This document shows positions 1,844 through 20,372 of a stretch of DNA of 39,211 nt, in pieces; position 1 is the stretch's first letter; every line of letters starts with the position of its first letter. This stretch comes from Candidatus Woesearchaeota archaeon. Its GTDB lineage: Archaea > Nanobdellota > Nanobdellia > Pacearchaeales > GW2011-AR1. Both the position numbers and the translations under genes were made by a program. The stretch is taken from assembly GCA_012798335.1 (NCBI GenBank), contig JAAZNJ010000005.1, forward strand, positions 1-39,211, read 5' to 3'. Under the pieces are notes generated by a model that saw only the letters and a program-made list of their open reading frames with translations, searched no databases and was not told the DNA's origin.

Positions 1844-4501
1844 TTAATTTGAAAGAGGCATTCCTGTATTTTTATTTGCATGTTTTTTAGAGGCATATTT
1901 TATCTGTTCTCCTGTCCATCCTGCTTTTTTAAGTTCAGCACTAATTTCTCCTTCTTTTTTACCTCTTTTTCTTTCTGCTTCAATAAACAAAACTAAATTA
2001 TAAAGCTGATTTTGGTCTTTAAATAAATGTTTTTCATATTTATTTTTATACCAATTAGCTAAAATTATCCAAGTTATTATACCTATTACTACAATTATCC
2101 CTGATATTAAAATTATAAGTTTAGTATTATCTTTTACTTCTACAGGAACAGGAGTTTCAACATCTAAATATGAAAGTGCAGGTGAAATAATTGCGTTAAA
2201 ATTTAAAGAATCTACATTCTGTGTTGTTGCAAAACTTATTGTTCTTGTTTCAGGAGAAATATCTATTTTTACATATCCATTATTCTCATTATAAGAAAGA
2301 TTTCCATCAAAAATTAAATTGTCATATTTTTTTAAGATTAAAGTTGAATTTAATATATTATCATTTTGATTTTCTATTTTTAATGTATAAAACTTTTCAA
2401 TTAGATAATCTTGATTGTCTACTCTTTTATTTATTTCTTTAAAAGTTAAAGATAATTTTTTATTTAATGTTTGCCAATTATAAATTGCATCTTGATATTC
2501 TTCAAGATTTGAAGAGTTATAACTCTCGTCTATCAAAGCAGGCTCTATTTGGTTTTTTTGAGGGTATACTGGTAGAGGAACTTGGGTTTGTGATTTTATA
2601 TATACAGAATCAGGTATATTCATTGTTGAAAGGTTAGATAAATATAAAGCATATTCATTAGAGGTTATATTTGAAGAATTAATTCTTGATTTAATTAAAG
2701 AAATCATGTTCTTATTTTCATTTATTTTTAATATCCTATAAATTTCAGATTTCTCAAAATTGTTTAAAGACATAGAATTTGAATTTAATTCAGAAATAAT
2801 TTTATTTAATTTACTTTCTTCTTCTAATAACATAATAGGCAAAGCATTAACAGCTGAAACTACCTCAACTTTGAAAGATTTTGAATATTCTTTATTAGAA
2901 GAATCATAAGCTTTTACTGATATGGTATAATTCCCTAAAGAAGAATAACTATGGCTAGCTTTAGGAACTGTTGTTTGTATTGGAGAACTTCCGTCCCCAA
3001 AATCCCAATAATAAGAATTTATACCTTTTGTGTTATTTACACCTATCTCAAACTGAGTAGAATAATTCACAGGAACCATTAAAGGATAAATCCAAAATAA
3101 AGCATCATTGCTTATTAAAACACTAACAACTTTTGAGAATATAAGTCTTGTATCAAAATACATCTTTAAGGTGTAATTTTTTGATGTAGTGGATATTGGC
3201 ATATTAAATCCGATATTATTCAAATAAATTTTTTGATAAGAATTTGTTGTTATATTTGCATGAACAACATTCAAATCATAAATATTATTAGTTTGTGTTA
3301 TCACTCCTGCTTTAAATCCTAAGTTTAATGAATCTAAATTTATTGTTTGGTTTTTATTTGTTATAAAATTTATAGGGATTATACATCCTTTTGAACAATT
3401 GTTATTATAATTACTATCAACATAATCTTTTATTGCTGATTCAACACTTATGATATCTGGATTTATCTTATTTATTGAACTAGAATTTAAAATAAAACTT
3501 CCAGTTGTGTTATATTTTTCTTGTCTAGCATAAATATCAAAATCTAAATTTCCTTGGAGTTCATTTAAAATTATAGAAATACCACAAGGATTATCAGATT
3601 CATATTTAATTTTATACTCTGTAGCATTACTATCTCTTGGACTAACACAAACAAGATATTCCTCATTTTCAAATGTCGGATAGGTAACATTACAAAAGAT
3701 TTCATTTTCTCCATCTGTTGTGGCTAAACAAGAAGCAGATCTTGTATTTTCTTCATTTAATATAGTTAAATTGAAAGAAGCTTTCTTTGTTCCATTTACT
3801 GTAGCTCCAAGCATTAAACCAGGACTATCTTTTAAAATCATCTTTTGGCAATAAGCATTTCTTGTATTACCAAAAGTAGCATAATCTATGGCTTTATCTT
3901 CTTCAAAGCATCCATAATTTCTATCCCCATATTCCTTTGTTCCAATATTTGACTGCCAATCTATAATTTTATCATTAAATAAATCAATCTTTAATGGAGG
4001 AAGTTCTGATTTATCATTATCAGAAGTTACATTTAAAGTGAAAGAATCAATTTCTGTTAATAAAGAGTTAGGAGGTGTTGTTATAACAAATGCAAATAAA
4101 TTATCTTGAATTTCATTACTTTCTATTGTTTTTGATTTTGATATTGAAGGATTTGATGATTTATAAAAATCTTTACAATCTGAAGGAGAACAAGAATAAT
4201 TAACTTGAGAATTTACTGATTTTTTTAACATATCTAAAAGAGATAAAGTTTTGTTAAAAGAAATATCCCCTAATAGAAGACTCATCTTTATTAAAGAATT
4301 TGTAGATTCATTTACAATACTCATATTTAACCAGCCATTTAAAGTTTCATTTGAAGAATAAACTGTTGAGATAGAATAACTCTGGTTTGCACTTGCATTT
4401 CCCAAGGTTACAGAACAAGATATAAATGATAAGAGAGATACAAAAATAAAAAAATTAAATGCAATTGCTAAACTTATAAAAATTGTATTTTTTTTCACCA
4501 T
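1844..4501 (-). CDS. Large Asn-rich surface protein with PKD domain, C-terminal TM anchor and short cytoplasmic tail
   Basis: N-terminal hydrophobic signal/TM (IFISLAIAFNFFIFVSLLSFISC). PKD signature YYWDFGDGSS...HSYSSLGNYTISVKAYDS. Many NxS/T sequons. C-terminal TM (LIILISGIIVVIGIITWIILANW) followed by a Lys-rich tail. Confidence 0.7.
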   Translation of the reverse strand: MVKKNTIFISLAIAFNFFIFVSLLSFISCSVTLGNASANQSYSISTVYSSNETLNGWLNMSIVNESTNSLIKMSLLLGDISFNKTLSLLDMLKKSVNSQVNYSCSPSDCKDFYKSSNPSISKSKTIESNEIQDNLFAFVITTPPNSLLTEIDSFTLNVTSDNDKSELPPLKIDLFNDKIIDWQSNIGTKEYGDRNYGCFEEDKAIDYATFGNTRNAYCQKMILKDSPGLMLGATVNGTKKASFNLTILNEENTRSASCLATTDGENEIFCNVTYPTFENEEYLVCVSPRDSNATEYKIKYESDNPCGISIILNELQGNLDFDIYARQEKYNTTGSFILNSSSINKINPDIISVESAIKDYVDSNYNNNCSKGCIIPINFITNKNQTINLDSLNLGFKAGVITQTNNIYDLNVVHANITTNSYQKIYLNNIGFNMPISTTSKNYTLKMYFDTRLIFSKVVSVLISNDALFWIYPLMVPVNYSTQFEIGVNNTKGINSYYWDFGDGSSPIQTTVPKASHSYSSLGNYTISVKAYDSSNKEYSKSFKVEVVSAVNALPIMLLEEESKLNKIISELNSNSMSLNNFEKSEIYRILKINENKNMISLIKSRINSSNITSNEYALYLSNLSTMNIPDSVYIKSQTQVPLPVYPQKNQIEPALIDESYNSSNLEEYQDAIYNWQTLNKKLSLTFKEINKRVDNQDYLIEKFYTLKIENQNDNILNSTLILKKYDNLIFDGNLSYNENNGYVKIDISPETRTISFATTQNVDSLNFNAIISPALSYLDVETPVPVEVKDNTKLIILISGIIVVIGIITWIILANWYKNKYEKHLFKDQNQLYNLVLFIEAERKRGKKEGEISAELKKAGWTGEQIKYASKKHANKNTGMPLSN

Positions 4502-4653: not shown

Positions 4654-4974
4654 ATGAAAAACGAACTTCTCATATTAAAGGCTTTAGCTGATGAAACGAG
4701 ATTAAAAATTGTTGAACTTTTAATAGAAGGAGAAAAATGTGTTTGTGAAATTTTTCCATATATTAAAAGAACTCAATCTACTATTTCTCTTCAATTAGAA
4801 GTTTTAAAAAAAGCAGGAATTTTAGATTCAAAAAAACAAGGAAGAAAAGTTTATTATTTTATTTCTAATAATAAAATTTATTCCATTTTAGAATTATTAG
4901 GAATTAAAACTGATAAAAAGAATAAGAATAATGGGAATAATAAGGATTATAAAAATAAGACGTATAAAAAATAA
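4654..4974 (+). CDS. ArsR/SmtB-family metalloregulatory HTH repressor
   Basis: LKALADETRLKIVELL...EKCVCEI...STISLQLEVLKKAGIL...GRKVYY. Shows the typical ArsR wHTH, with a CVC metal/metalloid-sensing motif in helix 3. Confidence 0.85.
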   Translation: MKNELLILKALADETRLKIVELLIEGEKCVCEIFPYIKRTQSTISLQLEVLKKAGILDSKKQGRKVYYFISNNKIYSILELLGIKTDKKNKNNGNNKDYKNKTYKK

Positions 4975-5049
4975 TAAAATTATAAAATCAAAAACTTCTA
5001 GTTTCTAACAACTTATAATTTATAAAAAAATAAAAATCAAAAGATTTAA

Positions 5050-5069
5050 ATATTGATAGATATCAATAT
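5050..5069. promoter_or_regulatory. Perfect 9-bp inverted repeat ATATTGATA-GA-TATCAATAT; candidate ArsR operator in front of the thioredoxin-like/permease genes
   Basis: The palindrome is read directly from the sequence. It lies 26 nt upstream of the ATG at 5095, flanked by TATA-like TTTAAATA and TTTTATAAAA. A degenerate copy (AAATTGATAATACTTAATAT, 14/20 identical) sits at 4631-4650, just upstream of the arsR-family ATG. Confidence 0.5.
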
Positions 5070-5094
5070 ATTTTATAAAAAGGTTAAAATTAAA

Positions 5095-5343
5095 ATGAAA
5101 ATAAAAGTTATTGGAAGTGGTTGTCCAACTTGTATAAAACTTCATCAATGGATTTTAAAACTTAGAGATGAAGGCAAAATAAATAAAAAAACAGAGATTG
5201 ATTATAGCAAGGATATTAACGAGTTAATTGAGCTGGGGGTTATGGGAAGTCCTGCTTTAGTTATTGATGGAAAAGTTGTTGGTGTTGGAATGCCATCAGA
5301 TGAAAAAGAACTTCTTGAAATAATAAAAAAATACGAAAAGTAG
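5095..5343 (+). CDS. Thioredoxin-fold small protein (redox-active disulfide protein 2 type)
   Basis: MKIKVIGSGCPTC: a CxxC motif right after the first beta strand, about 80 aa total. Start moved from the TTG at 5053 to the ATG at 5095, because the family starts MK(I/V)xV.GxGCxxC and an AGGT lies 10 nt upstream. Confidence 0.75.
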   Translation: MKIKVIGSGCPTCIKLHQWILKLRDEGKINKKTEIDYSKDINELIELGVMGSPALVIDGKVVGVGMPSDEKELLEIIKKYEK

Positions 5344-5385
5344 GATTTAGATAATAATCTTAAATAAAACTAAATAAAATTTAAA

Positions 5386-6498
5386 ATGGAAAAAAATGAT
5401 ATTTATTTTTTGTTAACTATACTTTTTGTATTTGGAATTTTATATTTCGTGCCTTCTAATTCTAGCTGGTTTAGAAGTTCTATTTTATCTGCTTTTGATA
5501 TGTTACATGATTATGCTCAAAAACATGTTTTAACTTGTTTATTACCTGCTTTGTTTATAGCAGGGGCTATTTCTGTTTTTGTTAAAAAAGATGCTGTTTT
5601 AAAATATCTTGGGCATAAATCTAAAAAAATAATTTCATATTCTATTGCGAGTATTTCAGGAGCAATTTTAGCTGTTTGTTCTTGTACAATCTTACCTTTA
5701 TTTGCAGGAATAAGAAAAAGAGGAGCTGGATTAGGGCCAGCAATCACTTTTCTATTCGCAGGTCCTGCAATAAATATAGCTGCAATTTTTTTAACTTCTT
5801 CTGTTTTAGGATTTAAGATAGGTTTAGCAAGAGCAATCGCTGCAATTTCTTTATCTATACTTGTTGGACTAACAATGGCTTTAATATTTAGAGAAAAAGC
5901 AGAACAAGGTGGTTTGATTATGCAAGAGAGTAAAGAAGTTCAATTATCTAAAAAAGTACTTTTTGCATTTTTTGGATTAATGATTGGAATTTTAGTTGTT
6001 AATGGTTTACAAATTAACAATTTTATTAAATATCTTTTAATGTTTTCCTTTGCTATTGCTACTGTTCTCTTAGTTATTTTTAAATTTCATAAAGAGACAA
6101 CAAAAGATTGGCTTAATGAGACATGGGGTTTTTCTAAAACTTTATTACCCCTCTTATTTTTAGGTGTTTTTATTGCAGGATTTATAATGCCATTATTGCC
6201 TGAAGAGATTATTTCAAAATTTGTTGGTCAAAATAACTTATTTGGAAATTTAATATCCTCTGTATTTGGAGCATTTATGTATTTTTCAACACTAACAGAA
6301 ATTCCAATATTACAAGCATTAATTGCTAAAGGAATGGCTTCAGGCCCTGCTTTAGCTTTATTATTAGCTGGTCCAAGTTTAAGTTTGCCTAATATGCTTG
6401 TTATTAGAAAAGTTTTAGGAACAAAAAAGACAATTGTCTATGTTTCTCTTGTAATAATTTATTCAACTATTGCAGGATTAATCTTTGGTTTGATCTAA
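5386..6498 (+). CDS. Two-domain permease (COG0701/ArsP-like family)
   Basis: About 10 predicted TM segments. Conserved vicinal Cys motif AVCSCTILPLFAG. The ArsR + thioredoxin-like + permease gene order is a known cassette. Confidence 0.7.
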   Translation: MEKNDIYFLLTILFVFGILYFVPSNSSWFRSSILSAFDMLHDYAQKHVLTCLLPALFIAGAISVFVKKDAVLKYLGHKSKKIISYSIASISGAILAVCSCTILPLFAGIRKRGAGLGPAITFLFAGPAINIAAIFLTSSVLGFKIGLARAIAAISLSILVGLTMALIFREKAEQGGLIMQESKEVQLSKKVLFAFFGLMIGILVVNGLQINNFIKYLLMFSFAIATVLLVIFKFHKETTKDWLNETWGFSKTLLPLLFLGVFIAGFIMPLLPEEIISKFVGQNNLFGNLISSVFGAFMYFSTLTEIPILQALIAKGMASGPALALLLAGPSLSLPNMLVIRKVLGTKKTIVYVSLVIIYSTIAGLIFGLI

Positions 6499-6712
6499 TT
6501 ATCAATTGTTTAATTGTAATTTAAACTCTTCTTCAAATTTCATTTAGTTTTTTTAAACACTTCTTTAAAAATTTGAAAAATTTAAATATAATTCATACTT
6601 AAAGGTATAAAGACAGAGACATTCAATAAAATGCCAAAAGTAATATTTAAACTGGATAAAGAAAAAGATTTATTTAACATTTGGGAAACCTGTAATAAAA
6701 GTTCATCATGGT

Positions 6713-6967
6713 ATGATCATAAAAAAATTACCACAAATAGATGCTAATAAAAATTATTCTGTAAATCTTTACGGGACAAGAAGAGAAGGAAAAGATAAGT
6801 ATATTCTTTACAATGGTGGAACCTTACTTGTCAATGAACAGATGAAGAACTTTGTGGAAGAAATAAGAAAAAGAGGATTTAGATTAAATGATTACCCTGA
6901 AAATCTTAAATTAAAGGCTGAAACATTTGGAAGAATCTTAAAAGCAGGGGGTTTCCTAATTGAATGA
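6713..6967 (+). CDS. Small hypothetical protein; possible winged-helix / RRE(PqqD)-like peptide-binding protein
   Basis: 84 aa. Its TGA overlaps the next ATG (ATGA at 6964-6967). The pattern of short beta strands (YSVNLYG, KYILYNG, TLLVNE) followed by helices, ending GRILKAGGFLIE, resembles PqqD-like RREs. By-eye inference only. Confidence 0.35.
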   Translation: MIIKKLPQIDANKNYSVNLYGTRREGKDKYILYNGGTLLVNEQMKNFVEEIRKRGFRLNDYPENLKLKAETFGRILKAGGFLIE

Positions 6968-7629
6968 TAACTAAAAAAGGAAGATTTTTGATAAGACACA
7001 AAGAAATTGATAGCAAATATATAGAATCTTTTGATTTTGATAAATTAGAAGATAAATATCAAGACATTAAAAAATTTTATTCTTTTGAAAAAGATTTAGG
7101 TTTAATTAGAATTTGTTTTATTTATAGTCCTGAAGAATTTTTATTTTTTACTGGAAGAGAATTTAATCAAAATTGGATTTGTGCGATGGTTGGATATCAT
7201 AATACAATAAATATTTTTTCTCCATCAATTATTGAAAAGATTACAACTCACAAGAAGGAGAGCATTTTTAACACAATAGTTCATGAAATATCTCATCTGT
7301 TTTATGGATATTCAATGTTAGCAGATTTTCCTTTATTTAATGAGGGAATTGCAAAATATCATGAGAATAACAAATGTAATAACAAAATTAATTTTAATCT
7401 TCCTTCACTAAAAGGAGGAAAAGATTCAATTTATGATTATGGTGTAGGGCATTTGATTGTTTGCTCAATTATGGAGCATTTTGGAAATGAAGGTGCAAAA
7501 AAGATAATTAAGTTTTTAAAAGAGTCTTCTACTGAAATGAGTGAAGAAGAATTATTTAATCTATTCAAAAAAATATTTGAAATTGATGTAGATTTATTAA
7601 TAGAACTGAAAGGAGGTAAAGAAAAATGA
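6964..7629 (+). CDS. Gluzincin-type zinc metallopeptidase (peptidase MA-like)
   Basis: VHEISHLFYG (HExxH) followed 19 residues later by NEG (PLFNEGIAKY). This matches the thermolysin-like HExxH...NE third-ligand spacing. No signal peptide. Confidence 0.6.
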   Translation: MITKKGRFLIRHKEIDSKYIESFDFDKLEDKYQDIKKFYSFEKDLGLIRICFIYSPEEFLFFTGREFNQNWICAMVGYHNTINIFSPSIIEKITTHKKESIFNTIVHEISHLFYGYSMLADFPLFNEGIAKYHENNKCNNKINFNLPSLKGGKDSIYDYGVGHLIVCSIMEHFGNEGAKKIIKFLKESSTEMSEEELFNLFKKIFEIDVDLLIELKGGKEK

Positions 7630-7817
7630 GTTTAGAAAATATCAAGGGAATAGATGAAAAAGTTTTTGAATATTTAGAAAGAGCACAAATCTTAGGTGGA
7701 GTTAAAACTAATTATGACCTTAAAAAAGAAACTTGTGACCAAAGTTGTTTTTGTGATACGTGCGATTGTGTATGTCACCAATCTTGTCATGGGGAAGGAC
7801 CTTGTTATAGCTTGTAA
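7626..7817 (+). CDS. Cys-rich small peptide A (candidate RiPP precursor; metallothionein-like peptide is the alternative)
   Basis: 63 aa. Canonical GGAGGT 8 nt upstream of the ATG, and an ATGA overlap with the peptidase stop. Cys-free 36-aa N-terminal part containing LGG, then ETCDQSCFCDTCDCVCHQSCHGEGPCYSL (8 Cys). Confidence 0.6.
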   Translation: MSLENIKGIDEKVFEYLERAQILGGVKTNYDLKKETCDQSCFCDTCDCVCHQSCHGEGPCYSL

Positions 7818-7821
7818 ACCA

Positions 7822-7842
7822 TTTTTATTTTTTATTTTTTTT
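7822..7842 (+). terminator. Oligo-T tract (T5-A-T6-A-T8), archaeal-type terminator after peptide A
   Basis: Read directly, 5 nt after the TAA at 7815-7817. Confidence 0.4.
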
Positions 7843-8054
7843 AGTAGTTCTTAGTAGCTTTTGCTTTCAATTCCTCTTAAAAAGATTTAATCTCATATTA
7901 GCTAGTAAAAACTTTATAGAGTTAAAAAGAGGTATGACATAAAGCAAGATGAGACAAACTTTAAAACAACAAATTTATTATCTAAAATTTGAAAGAAGAG
8001 AAAGAATTTACACAATTGTTAAAAATTCATTTAATAATATTTAACAAAAGATTA

Positions 8055-8420
8055 TTATTTCTTCTTATAACTTCCTTTTCTTGAAAAACAAGAAACAAGA
8101 AAATCATCTATCTTTTCTTGACTTTGAGTTGTCTTTTTTCTTACACAGCTTCTTCTTAAAATGTCTTGGATTTGCTCTTCAAGATTCATCATGTTCTTTT
8201 TTGCTCTTTTCTCCAAAGTTTTTAATATGTCATCAGAAAGAAAAATACAAACCTGATTTTTTATTTTTGAATCTTTCAAATTACTTTTTGTTATATAATT
8301 AAAGGCTTCTTGTATTGTATTTTCAGGCCATTTGTTATTTATCAAAGAGGTTTTTATTTGAAAATCAGAAAAACCTCTTTTTCTTGCTTCTTCTATAAAG
8401 TTAATCAATTCTTTATTCAT
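8055..8420 (-). CDS. Hypothetical protein: N-terminal ~40-aa FIEExRKRG module plus C-terminal ribbon-helix-helix-like segment
   Basis: N-terminus is LINFIEEARKRGFSDFQIKTSLINNKWPENTIQEAF. C-terminus is VCIFLSDDILKTLEKRAKKNMMNLEEQIQDILRR, a beta-alpha-alpha pattern of CopG/Arc type. Confidence 0.45.
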   Translation of the reverse strand: MNKELINFIEEARKRGFSDFQIKTSLINNKWPENTIQEAFNYITKSNLKDSKIKNQVCIFLSDDILKTLEKRAKKNMMNLEEQIQDILRRSCVRKKTTQSQEKIDDFLVSCFSRKGSYKKK

Positions 8421-8432
8421 TTCTTTTTTATT

Positions 8433-8723
8433 TTATTTTTTAGAAATATTTGCATTTGTAACATAAACTTTCTCAACTTTGAAAGATTTGTAAATTCCTT
8501 CAATTATATCTGTTCCAGCATATCCTGACAATAAAGATAATCTAGGGTCAAAATTAAAAACAATTCCTGTAAAAATCCCTATAATCAAAGCAACTAAAAC
8601 AGTTATAAAATAATAATTCCATAAGATTTTTCTTCTTAAAGACAAAGCCTTTAATAAACCAACAACTCCTCTTGTTAATCCACCAATACCTCCGAGAAGT
8701 CCTGCTGTAAAGAGTTCATTCAT
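8433..8723 (-). CDS. Small integral membrane protein
   Basis: 96 aa with Gly-rich hydrophobic segments (LLGGIGGLTRGVVGLL, YYFITVLVALIIGIFTGIVF). 8-nt gap to the upstream gene. Confidence 0.45.
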   Translation of the reverse strand: MNELFTAGLLGGIGGLTRGVVGLLKALSLRRKILWNYYFITVLVALIIGIFTGIVFNFDPRLSLLSGYAGTDIIEGIYKSFKVEKVYVTNANISKK

Positions 8724-8731
8724 TTTATTGC

Positions 8732-10315
8732 CTACTTTTTCTTTGTTTTTGCTTTTTTACTCTTTTTAACTTGAACTTTCTTTTTTGTCTTCTTTTTCTT
8801 TAAGTAATAATAAATGATTACAAGAGCAACTAAAGTTAAAACAGCTGCTAAAGGTCCATAGAATGGTAATGATGCTTCTGTTGGACATAGAACTTGCTTA
8901 ACTATTCCATCAGGATTTTCTGTATCACAACTATCTTTTACATTAATAGTCATCCAACCAGCAGGTTCTACATCGCAAGCTTTAACAATTGTTGAGCTAA
9001 TAAAACATCCTGGATTAGATGTTTCATAATTATCACATTTTCCATTTATACAAAATAAACCAGATGCACAGGTGTCTTTTGTTCCATCAGTACAATCAGA
9101 ACAAGTACATCCTTCATTCCATTCGCATGTATGATCATTATCACAAGCAGGATATTGATAAGGACAAACATTTCCCAATTGACAATATAAACCTCCTGTT
9201 GAATTTTTACAAAGTGTAAAACCTTTATTACACCCATTTGTAGGATCTCCAGGATTATCTAAATTAATGTATGCTCCATAACAACTATTTGAACTTGAAT
9301 TCCAGTAACAATTACAATCAATTGTTCCACCACATGTTATTCCCCCACTACTTAAAGTATAATCTGCAACATTACATGTGTCTCCTTCACAACTTGTTTC
9401 ATCAGGGTATTCATTACAAGTTTGAACTCCTGGGCTATCACAAACAGTTCCTTTTGTTACTTCTAATAAATTTGATGAACTCATTGTTATTCTTGGACTT
9501 GAAGTAATAGAAGCACTAAAATTATATTTTGTATTACCTCCAAATATACCAGCAGAAATCCATTGAGTTGTCCATTCACCATAAGCAACAGCATTATCTC
9601 CAAATGTTATAGAAGTAGGTTGTGATAAAATGCCTGTTGTTGAATCATCAGATTTAAACACAGTAAAATTAACTTGTTGATCTCTACATCCATCAGAATC
9701 ATCACCATAAACTTGAAGTTTTACTTTGTTTCCTTCAGCTGTTTTTGTTACACTCCAATTTGCTTTATTTAAATAGCACATCTTAGGAGCATTTGAATAA
9801 CAACATATCTTTGTTGAATATTCTGAAAAATTGCCAATATGCGCATTTGTATCAGAAGATAATGAAAGAAGATGAATATCTCTTGGATTAGCTCCTTCTG
9901 TTGGACAAGTTTCAATTTCTGTATAATTACTACAATCAAAATCTTCATAACAAACATTTACAATATAATTTGAATAATCTTTAATCTCTGCATGAGCATT
10001 TGTTGTTGAAGATAATCCGATAAGTTTGTTTCCATTAGCTGGCAAACAATTTAAATCTCCTGTCCCTCTTGCACAACATAAAACATAAGGATAACTTCCT
10101 GTTGTTGAATTCTCACCATGAGCATTTGTATAATTTGTTAAACCCATAACAATATAACCAATATCGCTTGTGCAACTTGTTCTTAACATTACTTCACACT
10201 GCCCATTTTCTAAAGAACTTGCAAAAGATAAAGAGGATAAGAAAGATAAAACTAGTATTGTAGAAATAAATAATAATCTCAACTCTTTTTTCATTCTAAT
10301 TTTAAGAAAATACAT
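8732..10315 (-). CDS. Cys-rich secreted surface protein with three TNAH repeats, C-terminal TM anchor and poly-Lys tail
   Basis: Signal peptide (LLFISTILVLSFLSSLSFASS; the true start may be the second Met, MKKEL). Three repeats: GLTNYTNAHGEN..YPYVLCC, GLSSTTNAHAEI..YIVNVCY and LSLSSDTNAHIGN..YSTKICC. C-terminal half has dense Cys. TM LAAVLTLVALVIIYYYL, then KKKKTKKKVQVKKSKKAKTKKK. Confidence 0.7.
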   Translation of the reverse strand: MYFLKIRMKKELRLLFISTILVLSFLSSLSFASSLENGQCEVMLRTSCTSDIGYIVMGLTNYTNAHGENSTTGSYPYVLCCARGTGDLNCLPANGNKLIGLSSTTNAHAEIKDYSNYIVNVCYEDFDCSNYTEIETCPTEGANPRDIHLLSLSSDTNAHIGNFSEYSTKICCYSNAPKMCYLNKANWSVTKTAEGNKVKLQVYGDDSDGCRDQQVNFTVFKSDDSTTGILSQPTSITFGDNAVAYGEWTTQWISAGIFGGNTKYNFSASITSSPRITMSSSNLLEVTKGTVCDSPGVQTCNEYPDETSCEGDTCNVADYTLSSGGITCGGTIDCNCYWNSSSNSCYGAYINLDNPGDPTNGCNKGFTLCKNSTGGLYCQLGNVCPYQYPACDNDHTCEWNEGCTCSDCTDGTKDTCASGLFCINGKCDNYETSNPGCFISSTIVKACDVEPAGWMTINVKDSCDTENPDGIVKQVLCPTEASLPFYGPLAAVLTLVALVIIYYYLKKKKTKKKVQVKKSKKAKTKKK

Positions 10316-13249: not shown

Positions 13250-13453
13250 ATGAATAATCTAGCTAGTCTAGTTGAAAGTATAGACGGGCTTTTTATAAAA
13301 AGATCTCATCCTGACAGAGTAGTCCTTTCCTATCAAGAGAAAAAATTACTTGAACAATATATATCCACAGAAATTAATTGTTACGATTGTGATTCTTGTA
13401 ATAGTTGTGGTTCTGGGGATTGTAATTCTTGTTGTGAAGTTGTTGATGATTAA
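13250..13453 (+). CDS. Cys-rich small peptide B (candidate RiPP precursor)
   Basis: 67 aa. Cys-free 43-aa leader-like part, then CYDCDSCNSCGSGDCNSCCEVVDD (7 Cys, mostly CxxC period-3 spacing, acidic tail). Its stop is 11 nt before the radical SAM ATG. Confidence 0.6.
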   Translation: MNNLASLVESIDGLFIKRSHPDRVVLSYQEKKLLEQYISTEINCYDCDSCNSCGSGDCNSCCEVVDD

Positions 13454-13464
13454 TCTAAAAAGGG

Positions 13465-14550
13465 ATGGTAAGAAAGATTTTTATCCAATGGGATTCAACG
13501 AATGATTGTAATCTTCGTTGTAGTCATTGTTATCATAATAGAGAAGGAGAAGAACATTCTTCTCATAAACAGGGATTAAATGCTATGTCTTTAGAAGATG
13601 TTATTTTAATGATTAATGATCTAAATGAAACCGCAAAAAGATGGTCTATGAAACCAAGATTTCAAATTTCTGGAGGAGAACCTTTAATGAGAAAAGATCT
13701 TTATTCTATCTTGGAATATACTAAAAATCTTAAAATGGAAGTAAGAATATTAACAAATGGAACTTTGATAACCGAAGAAAAAGCAAGGGATTTTTATGAA
13801 TTAGGAATTAGAAGATTACAAATTTCTTTAGACGGAAATAAGAAGAGACATAATCTTATAAGGGGTCAACCTTTTGCATATGATCTAGCCATTCAAGGAA
13901 TAAAAAATTGTGCAATTAATAATATAGAAGTTACAGTTTCTATGACTGCATTAAAATCAAATATACAAGATTTTGAAGACGTAATAATTAATTCTATTAA
14001 AGCAGGAGCAAAATATGTAGGAACAAAATCTTATGTCCCAAATCCTTTATTAGGTGTTAATGATCCTGAATTCCTGGATTGTGAAGATTTATACCTTTTG
14101 TATAAAAAAACGAGGGATTTAGAACAAAAATATTCTAAAAAAATTAATGTATTACAAACAGAAGTTTTATGGCATTTAATGCAATGGGATACTAAGATAA
14201 AAAAAGAAGCAAGAGAAAAAGATCTTTTTTTAAGTGGTTGTGGAGCAGGATTTTCTGGCCTTTCAGTTTTATCAGATGGGACAGTTTATCCATGTAGAAG
14301 ATTACCACTTCCTATAGGAAATATTAAAGAGGGATTTGCTAATTTAATGTTAAATAACCCTATTCTTAAAGATTTAAGAGATTTTGAAAAAATGAGAGCT
14401 AAAATGGATAATTGTCAACATATCCCTTATTGTAGGGGTTGTAGAGCAATTGCTTATGCAACAACTGGAGATTACATGGCTAAAGATCCAATGTGTTATA
14501 AAGAATTGGTTACTCCAAAAGATATTCAACCTAGGGTAATTAGAAGATGA
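13465..14550 (+). CDS. Radical SAM enzyme with C-terminal SPASM-type auxiliary Fe-S domain
   Basis: CNLRCSHCY (CX3CX2C) at residues 15-23. GGEPL SAM-binding motif. C-terminal C-x12-G-x4-C (CGAGFSGLSVLSDGTVYPC), then CQHIPYCRGC ... DPMCY. Confidence 0.9.
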   Translation: MVRKIFIQWDSTNDCNLRCSHCYHNREGEEHSSHKQGLNAMSLEDVILMINDLNETAKRWSMKPRFQISGGEPLMRKDLYSILEYTKNLKMEVRILTNGTLITEEKARDFYELGIRRLQISLDGNKKRHNLIRGQPFAYDLAIQGIKNCAINNIEVTVSMTALKSNIQDFEDVIINSIKAGAKYVGTKSYVPNPLLGVNDPEFLDCEDLYLLYKKTRDLEQKYSKKINVLQTEVLWHLMQWDTKIKKEAREKDLFLSGCGAGFSGLSVLSDGTVYPCRRLPLPIGNIKEGFANLMLNNPILKDLRDFEKMRAKMDNCQHIPYCRGCRAIAYATTGDYMAKDPMCYKELVTPKDIQPRVIRR

Positions 14551-15059
14551 ATACTAATGAAATAATTAAAACTTGTTTAAAAGATTTAGAGCCTAAGAAT
14601 GTTTTAGATTTAGGAATTGGAAAAGGAAGATGTTCTAAAATTTTTTTGAAAAAAGGGGTTGAAATTATAGGGGTTGATTTAAAAGATTATAAAATTCCAG
14701 GTATAAAATTTGTTAAATCTAATATAAAAAATTTTGATTTTAAAGAAAATTTTGATTTAATTATAGCTTCTTTAGTTCTTCATTTTTTAAATAAAGATTT
14801 ATCCCTTGAAATAATAAAAAAAATAAAAACCTTTACAAATAAAAATGGGCATAATTTTATTTTAACAATGAATAAGAGGGATAATCTTTTTAAAAAAAAC
14901 AAAAATAATTTTTATTTTGATGAAGAAGAACTTAAAGAATTATATAAAGATTGGGAAATAATCAAATCAGGAAATTTTGAAACCGATTTGGAAGAACATG
15001 ATAATCTAAAACCTCATAAACATAATCTTTCATTTATACTAACAAAAAAAGCTTATTAA
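14547..15059 (+). CDS. Class I SAM-dependent methyltransferase
   Basis: Motif I VLDLGIGKG, acidic end of beta-2 (IIGVDL), motif II-like LIIASLVLHF. ATGA overlap with the radical SAM stop. Confidence 0.8.
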   Translation: MNTNEIIKTCLKDLEPKNVLDLGIGKGRCSKIFLKKGVEIIGVDLKDYKIPGIKFVKSNIKNFDFKENFDLIIASLVLHFLNKDLSLEIIKKIKTFTNKNGHNFILTMNKRDNLFKKNKNNFYFDEEELKELYKDWEIIKSGNFETDLEEHDNLKPHKHNLSFILTKKAY

Positions 15060-18582: not shown

Positions 18583-19698
18583 TTATCTTTCATAGAAACA
18601 ATATGGATCCTTATGTTTAAAAGTTTTATGTATACTATATGAAGAAGCTTTACACCCTCCCAAACAATGTTCTTTTTTGTTACAACTCTTACATTCTTCA
18701 GGTAAGAAATCTTTAATAAACTTATATTTATTTTTAGAATTCCATATATCTTTAAGATTATCTTTTAATATATTTCCCATCTTAAACTTTTTAAAAGGTA
18801 ACAATTGACAAGGATAAACATCTCCATTGGATTCTATAATCATCTTGCTAAATCCTCCAGAACATTTTCGGGTTATTATTTCTTGTTTTTTCTCACCCAA
18901 AAGAAAACAAAAAGTATGGTCAAAAACAATCTCTGGGGTTTTTATTTTCTTGGATAAACTAATAAGCTTTTTTGTTACTTCCTTAAACTCTAAAGGAGAT
19001 AACATTGAATCAATGAAATTCTCTCCTTCCCCTAAAGGATAGAATTTAGAAAATTGTAAAGCTTTTACTTTCGTTTTTTTAAGTATTTCTATATATTCTT
19101 CTAAATATGGGAGAAATTGTTTTGTAAGAGTGGTATTTATTGTAATATCTATCTTATTATCAGTTAATCTTTTTATATTTTGGGTGGTTTTTTCAAAACT
19201 CCCCTCTTTTCTAATAAAGTCGTGAATTTTTTTAGGACCATCTAAACTAACATTTAATTTTAAAGTTTTTCTATATTTTTTAAAAAGAGGGAGAAGTTCT
19301 TTTACTTTTTTGGAGTTATAAACATTTGTAAATAAAGTAACATTGCAATTTTCACATAAGATAGGAATTATTTCTTTAATTCCTTCTTTAATTGTAGGTT
19401 CACCCCCAGTAACTAAGACTTCAAAAATTTTATTTTTAACGATTAATTTTGATATAGTTATTAATTCTTCTTTTGATAATTCTTCTTTTTCTAAATTTTT
19501 TTTATTTAGATAGCAATGTTTACAATTTAAATTACATTTTTTTGTTATTCTCCATTGAATTCTTAAAGGTAATTCAAATCCTTTTTCATAAATTGTATCT
19601 ATCTCTTTTTGATCTAAATTTTCAAAGAAGTATCTTCTATTTTTTTTATCGAATAAAATGAAACCATTCTTTTCTTTTCTTCTTATTTCTTCTATCAT
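18583..19698 (-). CDS. Radical SAM enzyme with canonical seven-Cys SPASM domain
   Basis: CNLNCKHCY (CX3CX2C) after a ~50-aa N-terminal extension. GGEPT. C-x12-G-x4-C (CSGGFSKMIIESNGDVYPC), then CKSCNKKEHCLGGC (CX2CX5CX3C), then DPYC. Confidence 0.9.
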   Translation of the reverse strand: MIEEIRRKEKNGFILFDKKNRRYFFENLDQKEIDTIYEKGFELPLRIQWRITKKCNLNCKHCYLNKKNLEKEELSKEELITISKLIVKNKIFEVLVTGGEPTIKEGIKEIIPILCENCNVTLFTNVYNSKKVKELLPLFKKYRKTLKLNVSLDGPKKIHDFIRKEGSFEKTTQNIKRLTDNKIDITINTTLTKQFLPYLEEYIEILKKTKVKALQFSKFYPLGEGENFIDSMLSPLEFKEVTKKLISLSKKIKTPEIVFDHTFCFLLGEKKQEIITRKCSGGFSKMIIESNGDVYPCQLLPFKKFKMGNILKDNLKDIWNSKNKYKFIKDFLPEECKSCNKKEHCLGGCKASSYSIHKTFKHKDPYCFYER

Positions 19699-20372
19699 TT
19701 TAATGGGGGTAACAAACTCGATTTATTTTTTTCAATATCTTTCATTATTTCTTTAATTAATCCTATTTCCCTTATATCAGAAAATTTTACTTTTTTGTAT
19801 ATTTGTTCTGTTTTTTCTGGGAGGTAATTAATTAAGTAAGAGATTTTTTTTGGATTAGCATATTCTGAGATGTCCAACCTTCTAAACCCCAATTCAATAA
19901 TTCTATCCATAAGATACTGAATTGAGAGAATTGCTGATTCAAGATCGTTTTTTTCTAATCCCTTTCTAACATTTATAGAAGTTCTTTCGACCAAATCGTA
20001 ATCTCCCCCTATAATTGTCTGTTCTTTCCAGGCATCTTCTTTTAAATTTTGCTTTTTTGCACAATTTATTAAATCTTGATAAATTCCATTTGGATCATAA
20101 ATAGGTTTTGAATTCCTAAATCGATCAATAATCCTAACTTCTTTTAAAGAAATTGCATTCAATATGTTTATTGGATCTTCAAAATAAATTTCAAATATTA
20201 AACCAGAATCTCTAATAATTCTTCTTGGAAGATGTTCTTTTAATACATATAAATCTACATCTGAATTTAATGTTATTTCTTTAGCTCCGCTTCCAAATAT
20301 CCCTATAGCCTTTGGAGAAAATTCCTTTGTTAATTCATTTTGAACTTTTTTTATACTTATTTTATGTACCAT
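19695..20372 (-). CDS. Pol-beta superfamily nucleotidyltransferase with C-terminal helical domain (KNTase-like architecture)
   Basis: GIFGSGAKEITLNSDVDLYVL fits the G[GS]-x(9-13)-DxD signature. ATGA overlap with the radical SAM start (19695-19698). Confidence 0.7.
   Translation of the reverse strand: MVHKISIKKVQNELTKEFSPKAIGIFGSGAKEITLNSDVDLYVLKEHLPRRIIRDSGLIFEIYFEDPINILNAISLKEVRIIDRFRNSKPIYDPNGIYQDLINCAKKQNLKEDAWKEQTIIGGDYDLVERTSINVRKGLEKNDLESAILSIQYLMDRIIELGFRRLDISEYANPKKISYLINYLPEKTEQIYKKVKFSDIREIGLIKEIMKDIEKNKSSLLPPLK

Follow-up and report, generated by a model that had tools for sequence, protein, structure and literature searches.

A likely maturase-deleted copy of a radical SAM peptide cassette on a woesearchaeotal contig

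Do three overlapping open reading frames (ORFs) from a Candidatus Woesearchaeota archaeon make up a complete system for modifying a small peptide, or are they what is left of one? The ORFs lie on contig JAAZNJ010000005.1 of GenBank assembly GCA_012798335.1 (positions 1 to 39,211, forward strand; by "the window" we mean this entire stretch of 39,211 nucleotides). An initial annotation, made from the sequence alone, read them as a system for a peptide that is ribosomally synthesized and then modified post-translationally (RiPP): a small protein like a RiPP recognition element (RRE), a peptidase for the leader, and a Cys-rich precursor, with the modifying enzyme perhaps supplied from elsewhere in the window. 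We think it likely that window positions 6631–7817 are instead a maturase-deleted copy of a three-gene radical S-adenosylmethionine (SAM) cassette of RiPP type from DPANN archaea, and that the 84-amino-acid (84-aa) ORF is the leftover tail of the enzyme. The three ORFs, from a reading of the window and a listing of its ORFs, are:

6713–6967, + strand: the 84-aa ORF
6964–7629, + strand: the 221-aa ORF
7626–7817, + strand: the 63-aa ORF

Everything that had been described in these ORFs is present: the ATGA overlaps that chain them (6964–6967 and 7626–7629), the HExxH...NE motif of the 221-aa protein, the GGAGGT ahead of the 63-aa ORF, and a peptide with eight cysteines. Scans of the three proteins against Pfam and NCBIfam gave no significant match.

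The 84-aa ORF and the conserved cassette

Exact-protein look-up and pattern scans of GTDB genomes and JGI metagenomes gave us 40 loci (L001–L040) to compare. Not counting itself, the 221-aa protein has 39 relatives in the database (40–86% identity); the 63-aa peptide has six, on contigs that also carry relatives of the 221-aa protein. In a tblastn table over all of the loci, the genes for these two proteins are syntenic in more than 20. About 17 distinct lineages have the same arrangement (from tblastn and frame extension): a gene for a radical SAM/SPASM enzyme of 422–431 aa, the gene for the 221-aa HExxH protein, and a gene for a Cys-rich peptide of about 61 aa. The end of the enzyme gene overlaps the 221-aa gene by ATGA, and the small Cys-rich ORF comes next. 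(A full-length enzyme gene is found directly 5' of the homologue of the 221-aa gene in L001, L003, L009–L011, L014–L018, L020–L023, L029, L030, and L032–L039.) Genes that flank the cassette vary between loci, so the conserved unit is the maturase, the HExxH protein, and the peptide. The initial annotation had expected a conserved trio of recognition protein, peptidase, and precursor; in the relatives, the first of the three is a maturase instead. The broader RiPP-like logic does hold for the family, since a radical SAM/SPASM gene accompanies the peptide and HExxH genes in about 17 lineages. The named records that carry the cassette are metagenome-assembled genomes (MAGs) of Woesearchaeota, Pacearchaeota, and Nanoarchaeota, and most of the loci are metagenome contigs.

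The 84-aa ORF matches only the end of this enzyme. Its counterpart in the full-length enzymes of 426–429 aa is residues ~348–429, with 74–83% identity by tblastn: residues 3–84 of the ORF are 74% identical to the C-terminus of the enzyme from L001 (...KKLPSMDKDIRYRVNLYGTRKEEEGKYILYNGKTLLVNKQMKDFVEGIKSTGFRLNDFPENLKLKAETFGRILKAGGFLLE) and 83% identical to that from L018. Codons 3–84 correspond to the enzyme's last 82 codons; the start of the ORF (the ATG and two codons) stems from another gene, out of frame. The enzymes of the relatives have Radical_SAM, Fer4_12, and SPASM domains; what the window keeps of the enzyme is just the last 82 codons, which encode no cysteine and no Fe-S motif. Since the remnant has no cysteine, it has no catalytic capacity.

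The other parent of the 84-aa ORF resembles a 219-aa gene that lies downstream of the cassette in L018 (L018:2976–3635). This gene encodes a HEIMH motif and has no match in Pfam or NCBIfam. (We considered whether it belongs to the cassette and rejected the idea, since, apart from the remnant in the window, L018 is the one place where it was found, and it has no family match.) The features around the junction of the two parents are:

6581–6588: a TATA-like sequence read by inspection, TTTAAATA, conceivably a promoter element
6631–6747, + strand: a 38-aa ORF whose first 31 codons are the 5' remnant of the 219-aa-like gene and whose remaining codons run out of frame into sequence derived from the radical SAM gene
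6717–6725, + strand: the deletion junction, with the microhomology AAAAAAATT that is common to the 219-aa-like gene and the radical SAM gene

Nucleotides 6631–6723 encode MPKVIFKLDKEKDLFNIWETCNKSSSWYDHK, which is 58% identical over 31 aa to the start of the 219-aa gene (L018:2976–3068; tblastx and tblastn), and the 38-aa ORF is annotated as a gene on L004. On the other side, the blastn homology to the radical SAM genes of L018, L035, and L038 starts exactly at window position 6720. A nucleotide comparison shows that AAAA(A)TT is common to both parents: the 219-like gene has ...TATAAAATTCAT..., the radical SAM gene has ...TTAAAAAAATTGCC..., and the window has ...GATCATAAAAAAATTACC.... A microhomology-mediated deletion removed enzyme codons ~1–346, with all of the Fe-S motifs, and most of the 219-like gene. 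Five assemblies (L004–L008: two MAGs from GenBank, two metagenomes from JGI, and one assembly from Logan) share this junction at 100% identity, so it is not a misassembly. Judging from its sequence, this locus has lost the cognate maturase.

How would the remnant be translated? At 6713, the ATG arises from tgg-tAT-GAt-cat of the 219-like gene when this is read in the +1 frame; it falls within the 38-aa ORF and is not preceded by a purine-rich ribosome-binding site. We infer that this ATG is fortuitous and that the 84-aa ORF is an accidental reading frame over an orphaned docking domain. A word-indexed homologue search with the 84-aa ORF found only itself. When we used phmmer to search 1.84 billion representatives, there were nine matches: three radical SAM proteins (425, 426, and a partial 307 aa), which match at their C-termini; four fragments of 51–119 aa; and two unrelated repeat proteins, which match in multiple stretches. 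Among these 1.84 billion representatives, phmmer found no stand-alone 84-aa family, and outside of the window's lineage, the domain is always the C-terminus of a protein of about 425 aa. The ORF that had been taken to encode a small RRE protein is what a deletion left of the maturase, with a chance start codon and without a Shine-Dalgarno site. Genome mining can be misled here: the end of a deleted maturase can pass for a discrete recognition protein, and the intact-looking genes for the precursor and the peptidase in the window then suggest a complete system.

We also asked whether the domain resembles an RRE. Neither the 84-aa ORF nor any of 19 aligned C-terminal domains matched PqqD (PF05402) in Pfam or NCBIfam, even at E ≤ 1. 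A profile search of the PDB with the alignment of C-terminal domains returned no RRE protein (the top match, haptoglobin, is spurious). We built an AlphaFold2 (AF2) model of the 84-aa domain from a 7-row alignment of database proteins. The model has a predicted local distance difference test (pLDDT) score of 88, with strands at residues 21–26, 29–33, and 37–41, helices at 42–54 and 63–78, and a short turn between the helices. When this model was compared to the PDB with Foldseek, the best match was McbB of the microcin B17 synthetase, which is statistically weak (E = 0.11, probability 0.97, query TM-score (TMq) 0.54). NisB and LynD, which belong to the few matches whose TMq exceeds 0.5, had TMq of 0.53, the winged-helix domains of NO66 and MINA53 had TMq of 0.63–0.68, and no match had E < 0.001. 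McbB, NisB, and LynD carry RREs. Like the PqqD-like winged helix-turn-helix of these proteins, the domain is predicted to have three or four strands followed by helices. Unlike them, it has no match to PF05402 or any other sequence match, its Foldseek E-values are at least 0.1, and in the window it is an orphan fragment rather than a gene of its own. On its own, then, the 84-aa protein models as an RRE-like winged helix with weak Foldseek matches. The earlier guess about its fold is probably right, given strands followed by helices and RRE-bearing enzymes among the best (weak) structural neighbours; that it is a discrete protein is not. The RRE-like element would be the C-terminal domain of the maturase, and the fold support for this is modest. 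The relatives' enzyme begins directly at CxxxCxxC, so it has no N-terminal RRE. A C-terminal RRE on a radical SAM enzyme has a precedent in the proteusin epimerases (PMC8326336), although those epimerases lack SPASM clusters.

The peptidase, the peptide, and the intact cassette

In the 221-aa protein, the HEISH motif is at codons 107–111 (nt 7282–7296), and the glutamate that is the third zinc ligand, in NEG, is codon 127 (nt 7342–7344). H107, E108, H111, and E127 are invariant in all 28 of the aligned sequences, as are W71, H96, Y114, and Y132. Pfam scans of these family members identified BSP (PF04450) in 12 of the 28 and Peptidase_M1 in 8 of the 28; the window's protein is below the cut-off. 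(We rejected membership in the M1 family itself, PF01433, for which the score is 13.8 bits and the gathering cut-off is 27.7.) A profile search of the PDB matched the active-site region of aminopeptidase N, HELAH...NEGFASY, with E = 8e-4. The AF2 model has a pLDDT of 95.2 and a predicted TM-score (pTM) of 0.92. By Foldseek, the model matches the M9 peptidase domain of the collagenase ColH (E = 1.5e-4) as well as many M1 enzymes (TMq ~0.5), including tricorn-interacting factor F3, IRAP, ERAP1, and LTA4H (TMq of 0.5–0.56). By motif and by predicted fold, the 221-aa protein is a minimal gluzincin, as had been proposed.

The protein shares with the gluzincins of clan MA(E) (M1, including the AplP type; M9; and BSP, PF04450) the HExxH motif, the glutamate 16 residues past the second histidine, the NEGxAxY motif, and, in its model, the fold. 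It differs in consisting of the catalytic domain alone, in scoring below M1, and in the apparent replacement of GxMEN. By eye, the position that aligns with the exopeptidase motif of M1, GAMEN (GxMEN), reads CAMVG, which makes an endopeptidase more likely than an aminopeptidase. The protein has no hydrophobic N-terminus, so it is probably cytoplasmic. From its gene position and from the precedent of M1-type enzymes, we view it as a putative leader peptidase: for lanthipeptides of classes III and IV, M1 enzymes are established as the leader peptidases (PMC10885120).

The 63-aa ORF was correctly recognized as a real, conserved, and translationally coupled gene: its homologues share both a leader and a Cys-rich core. 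The N-terminal half of the window's peptide is free of cysteine and includes LGG, and the core, ETCDQSCFCDTCDCVCHQSCHGEGPCYSL, has 8 Cys in 29 residues. Across the family (alignments A1 and A5), the leader has the motif (V/I)L-E-S-L-x-x-A-x-(I/V)-(L/F), that is, L..L..A.IL, with A20 invariant. The core of the family is C-D-C-(V/I)-C-N-Q-P-C-H-G-E-G-P-C-Y, and the number of cysteines upstream of it varies. The window has C-D-C-V-C-H-Q-S-C-H-G-E-G-P-C-Y where the family consensus is CDCVCNQPCHGEGPCY. Distant homologues of the peptide were located by ORF scanning. In L034, the core has diverged to three Cys, but the leader motif is kept, and in L017 the peptide is encoded upstream of the enzyme, not downstream of the peptidase gene as in most loci. 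A persistent leader, a variable core, and a shifted gene position are typical of RiPP precursors. The LGG of the leader had been read as a double-glycine motif. G25 (in LGG or LAG) is conserved among the close relatives only and is absent in L032, L033, L014, L015, L034, and L017. Because distant members lack this glycine, a double-glycine motif is not a property of the family, and that reading does not survive. Nor did we see a C39 or PCAT gene in the examined loci with gene families listed.

Two candidate ribosome-binding sites lie within the coding sequences of the preceding genes:

6947–6951, + strand: a GGGGG run, the likely ribosome-binding site of the 221-aa gene, inside the KAGG codons and 12 nt before the ATG
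7612–7617, + strand: GGAGGT, the Shine-Dalgarno site of the peptide gene, within the LKGG codons and 8 nt before the peptide's ATG

KAGGF is conserved among the aligned C-terminal domains (alignment A3), and the KAGG codons yield GCAGGGGGT ahead of the 221-aa gene; the GGGGG run is likely a ribosome-binding site that is carried by the 3' end of the radical SAM gene. Similarly, the C-terminus of the 221-aa protein (...ELKGG...) is conserved (alignment A2), the LKGG codons yield AAAGGAGGT ahead of the peptide gene, and L018 carries the same GGAGGT motif. The embedding of these sites in conserved codons of the gene ahead could be the reason that the enzyme gene's 3' end is spared by deletions.

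The relatives' enzymes score below all of the curated NCBIfam cut-offs. Their best scores are 73–83 bits for PapB (NF047865, with a cut-off of 340), ~83 bits for NirJ2, and 65–74 bits for MftC; scores for GeoRSP, SCIFF, and others are lower, and far below the cut-off. Because the family reaches no curated model, it is a clean target for expression studies. We consider this a family of radical SAM/SPASM RiPP type that is uncharacterised and, among named records, found only in DPANN archaea. Few RiPP products are known from archaea, and radical-SAM-type RiPP clusters have been noted in DPANN, with no system like the present cassette described (PMC12144867). We found no archaeal radical SAM RiPP product described in the papers that we consulted.

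The closest known systems are the ranthipeptide and sactipeptide clusters (PapB, NF047865; SCIFF, TIGR03974; CteB; CcpM, TIGR04068). They too have a radical SAM/SPASM gene beside the gene for a short precursor, whose leader is Cys-free and whose core is multi-Cys, as well as a protease encoded in the cluster, and PapB is the best or second-best curated match of the relatives' enzyme. However, the scores are far under the cut-offs (83 versus 340 bits), the copy in the window has no enzyme, and, among named records, the present family is found only in MAGs of DPANN archaea. Also, the RREs of CteB and AlbA are N-terminal, whereas here the RRE-like domain is C-terminal to SPASM. The pathways for mycofactocin (MftA/B/C/E) and PQQ (PqqA/D/E/F) likewise combine a small peptide, a PqqD-like recognition element, a radical SAM/SPASM enzyme, and a peptidase. 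But in the cassette, the enzyme itself carries the predicted recognition element at its C-terminus, the core is long and multi-Cys, no curated model is reached, and the peptidase is a minimal gluzincin instead of a creatininase-like or M16 enzyme.

We propose that in the intact cassette, the RRE-like winged-helix domain at the C-terminus of the radical SAM/SPASM enzyme (the last ~80 residues) would dock the leader, and the radical SAM/SPASM core would cross-link or otherwise modify the Cys-rich core of the peptide. The gluzincin would then remove the leader in the cytoplasm. In the window, transcription of the peptidase and peptide genes probably continues from the promoter of the truncated upstream gene, and both genes would be translated from the Shine-Dalgarno sites within the preceding coding sequences, but the peptide would no longer be modifiable by its cognate enzyme. 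Most likely, the cassette is orphaned and in an early stage of decay or of repurposing.

Loss of the enzyme and competing explanations

The window's lineage is not alone. Five other lineages lack an intact enzyme gene, and the 221-aa and peptide genes are intact in four of these (all but L013):

L024: 76 codons of the radical SAM gene are left, with no start codon; 99.8% nucleotide identity to the intact L023 from the breakpoint onward
L027 and L028: a 38-aa homologous remnant of the radical SAM gene, within an open frame of 43 codons, with no start codon
L019: a frameshift in the radical SAM gene
L040: the radical SAM gene is in two parts, of 309 aa and 105 aa
L013: no enzyme and no peptide

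By its near-identity to L023, the deletion in L024 appears to be a very recent polymorphism. The repeated loss of the enzyme while its two small partners stay raises a modest evolutionary question, namely whether the partners have an independent role.

Are the remaining genes still under selection? Pairwise ratios of nonsynonymous to synonymous substitution rates (dN/dS) are ~0.1 in all three segments (the 84-aa remnant, the 221-aa gene, and the peptide), but such values cannot separate a pseudogene from a constrained remnant because most of the divergence may predate the deletion. We counted private changes in five close taxa and compared the window to its four closest relatives (pooled) with the Fisher test. 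In the peptide, the ratio of nonsynonymous to synonymous changes is 13:12 for the window and 10:31 for the relatives (p = 0.033). The corresponding ratios are 21:35 and 89:110 for the 221-aa gene (p = 0.36) and 14:21 and 26:41 for the remnant of the radical SAM gene (p = 1.0). The density of private nucleotide changes is 14.2% in the remnant versus 8.4% in the 221-aa gene (p = 0.013). At the protein level, the window's peptide has 11 private amino acid changes over 63 alignment columns, as compared to 0–1 in the four closest relatives. Among them are two substitutions in the near-invariant CNQPC (N to H and P to S), a Y-to-C change, and an insertion of two residues in the leader; all of the cysteines are kept, and one is gained. 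These data fit a peptidase that is still constrained, a peptide under relaxed or altered selection, and a remnant that was recently orphaned or is weakly constrained. The counts are compatible with decay and with repurposing alike. The five assemblies of the window's lineage show no differences across 6402–8669 and are uninformative about selection.

Several observations weigh against our proposal. The likeness of the domain to RREs is absent at the level of sequence and weak at the level of fold (best E = 0.11), and the RiPP reading of the family rests on gene association and on predicted folds. The remnant has no clear signature of a pseudogene: it contains no stop codons, and its ratio of nonsynonymous to synonymous changes is like that of its relatives. 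It could still be constrained, or the deletion could be recent. And the disruptions in L019 and L040 could be errors of sequencing or assembly.

We weighed other explanations as well. One is that, after repeated, independent loss of the maturase, the peptidase and the peptide (here with the RRE-like domain) persist as a working module, either with a function, such as metal or redox chemistry, that does not depend on the cognate modification or by re-routing to a paralogous radical SAM/SPASM enzyme. We consider this unlikely. If true, the re-routing case would be a natural rewiring of a RiPP pathway by domain fission in genome-reduced DPANN archaea.

Domain fission with maturation in trans can be stated more specifically. 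The 84-aa RRE-like domain would be translated and would hand the peptide to the radical SAM/SPASM enzyme at 13465–14550 or the one at 18583–19698, and to the gluzincin. PqqD and MftB, for example, are discrete RRE proteins that act in this way. The deletion left a whole predicted domain with an in-frame ATG and no stop codons, its nonsynonymous to synonymous ratio is no worse than that of intact relatives, the two other radical SAM/SPASM genes are 6–11 kb away, and the faster change of the peptide could be adaptation to a new partner. However, the start codon belongs to another gene and is used out of frame, falls within the 38-aa ORF, and lacks a Shine-Dalgarno site. In L024 (76 codons) and L027 (43 codons), the remnants are without any start codon, and in L027 the domain itself is broken. 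Because of these start-less remnants, retention of the enzyme's 3' end is better explained by the embedded ribosome-binding site and translational coupling. There is no stand-alone homologue among the 1.84 billion representatives. Furthermore, the enzymes at 13465 and 18583 are only 25–27% identical to the cognate enzyme, and the one at 13465 is directly preceded by its own small Cys-rich ORF (13250–13453), with no evident similarity between the leaders (by eye). It is possible that one of these genes supplies the maturase in trans, as had been suggested initially, but fission of this kind seems improbable to us.

We also considered that the peptide might act unmodified, in metal binding or redox chemistry, like a metallothionein. 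The HExxH protein would then trim the peptide or be unrelated to it, and the radical SAM enzyme would be dispensable, hence its repeated loss. The core has CxC and CxxC spacing, with 8 Cys in 29 residues and His and Asp as neighbours. At least five further lineages have lost the enzyme or carry a disrupted gene for it, with the peptide and HExxH genes intact in four, and the window's lineage keeps every cysteine and gains one. Also, an operon for an ArsR regulator, a thioredoxin-like protein, and an ArsP permease lies immediately upstream of the cassette. This recalls SmtA/SmtB, in which a bacterial metallothionein, another small Cys-rich product, is encoded near the gene for its regulator of the ArsR/SmtB family. 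But these three genes are beside the cassette in no other lineage. Furthermore, the link to the radical SAM/SPASM enzyme is found in about 17 lineages, and the peptides share a leader of ~30 residues that is conserved and free of Cys, a part for which a metallothionein would have no need. Scans of Pfam and NCBIfam gave no match to a metallothionein family. And because the deletion in L024 is very recent, intact downstream genes need not imply long-term retention. We doubt that this explanation is correct.

A peptide-derived cofactor, formed by the logic of PQQ or mycofactocin from a reactive C-terminal P-C-Y in a pathway that the window's lineage then lost, would account for the four functions shared with PqqA/D/E/F and MftA/B/C/E, for MftC and PqqE being among the better curated matches to the enzyme (65–74 bits), for the near-invariance of P59, C60, and Y61 close to the C-terminus, and for the lack of a transporter as a conserved neighbour in the loci examined, but it is very improbable, as every curated-family score is far below its cut-off, no cofactor-dependent dehydrogenase is a conserved neighbour, and the long multi-Cys core is unlike PqqA or MftA. 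A maturase-deleted cassette is our preferred explanation for the locus.

Neighbouring genes and related cassettes

The operon upstream of the cassette is at window positions 4654–6498 (+ strand), immediately 5' of the deletion junction. It encodes an ArsR/SmtB regulator, a thioredoxin-like protein of the MTH895/ArsE type, and an ArsP_1 permease. We rejected it as part of the system: its adjacency is unique to the window's lineage and is absent at every other locus. Similarly, the window's downstream genes adjoin the cassette at no other locus.

The window also contains a second RiPP-like cassette, apparently intact, at 13250–15059 (+ strand). It encodes a 67-aa peptide with a CxxC-rich tail (...CYDCDSCNSCGSGDCNSCCEVVDD), a radical SAM/SPASM enzyme (179 bits for the ACGX-system radical SAM model, with a cut-off of 400), and an overlapping SAM-dependent methyltransferase. 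A third radical SAM/SPASM gene is at 18583–19698 (– strand; 141 bits for the GeoRSP radical SAM model, with a cut-off of 400). Its product has an N-terminal extension of ~45 aa, and the gene overlaps a 225-aa ORF that lies upstream on the same strand (19695–20372). Extra radical SAM/SPASM genes are also found a few kb from the cassette in L038 (2366–3828), where the gene has its own 60-aa upstream ORF, and in L040 (5951–7288). It seems that several such cassettes are clustered in these small genomes.

In L001, on a 375-kb contig, a gene of the phage integrase family (L001:6671–7894) lies about 0.8 kb 5' of the intact cassette. No relatives of the cassette were found among the viral contigs of IMG/VR, so a virus-borne cassette is unsupported.

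The lineage of L027, which keeps only the 38-aa remnant of the cognate enzyme, has genes for a YcaO cyclodehydratase, a protein of the nitroreductase family (SagB-like), and a DUF2268 zinc protease upstream of the cassette (L027:1687–4433), as well as another radical SAM/SPASM gene downstream (L027:7288–8391). A Cys-rich peptide beside azoline-forming enzymes may merit attention.

Finally, the region lies between two genes on the – strand of the window that encode large predicted surface or secreted proteins. The protein at 8732–10315 (527 aa) is very Cys-rich and has a signal-like segment at its N-terminus and a transmembrane segment with a Lys tail at its C-terminus; the one at 1844–4501 (885 aa) has a PKD domain.

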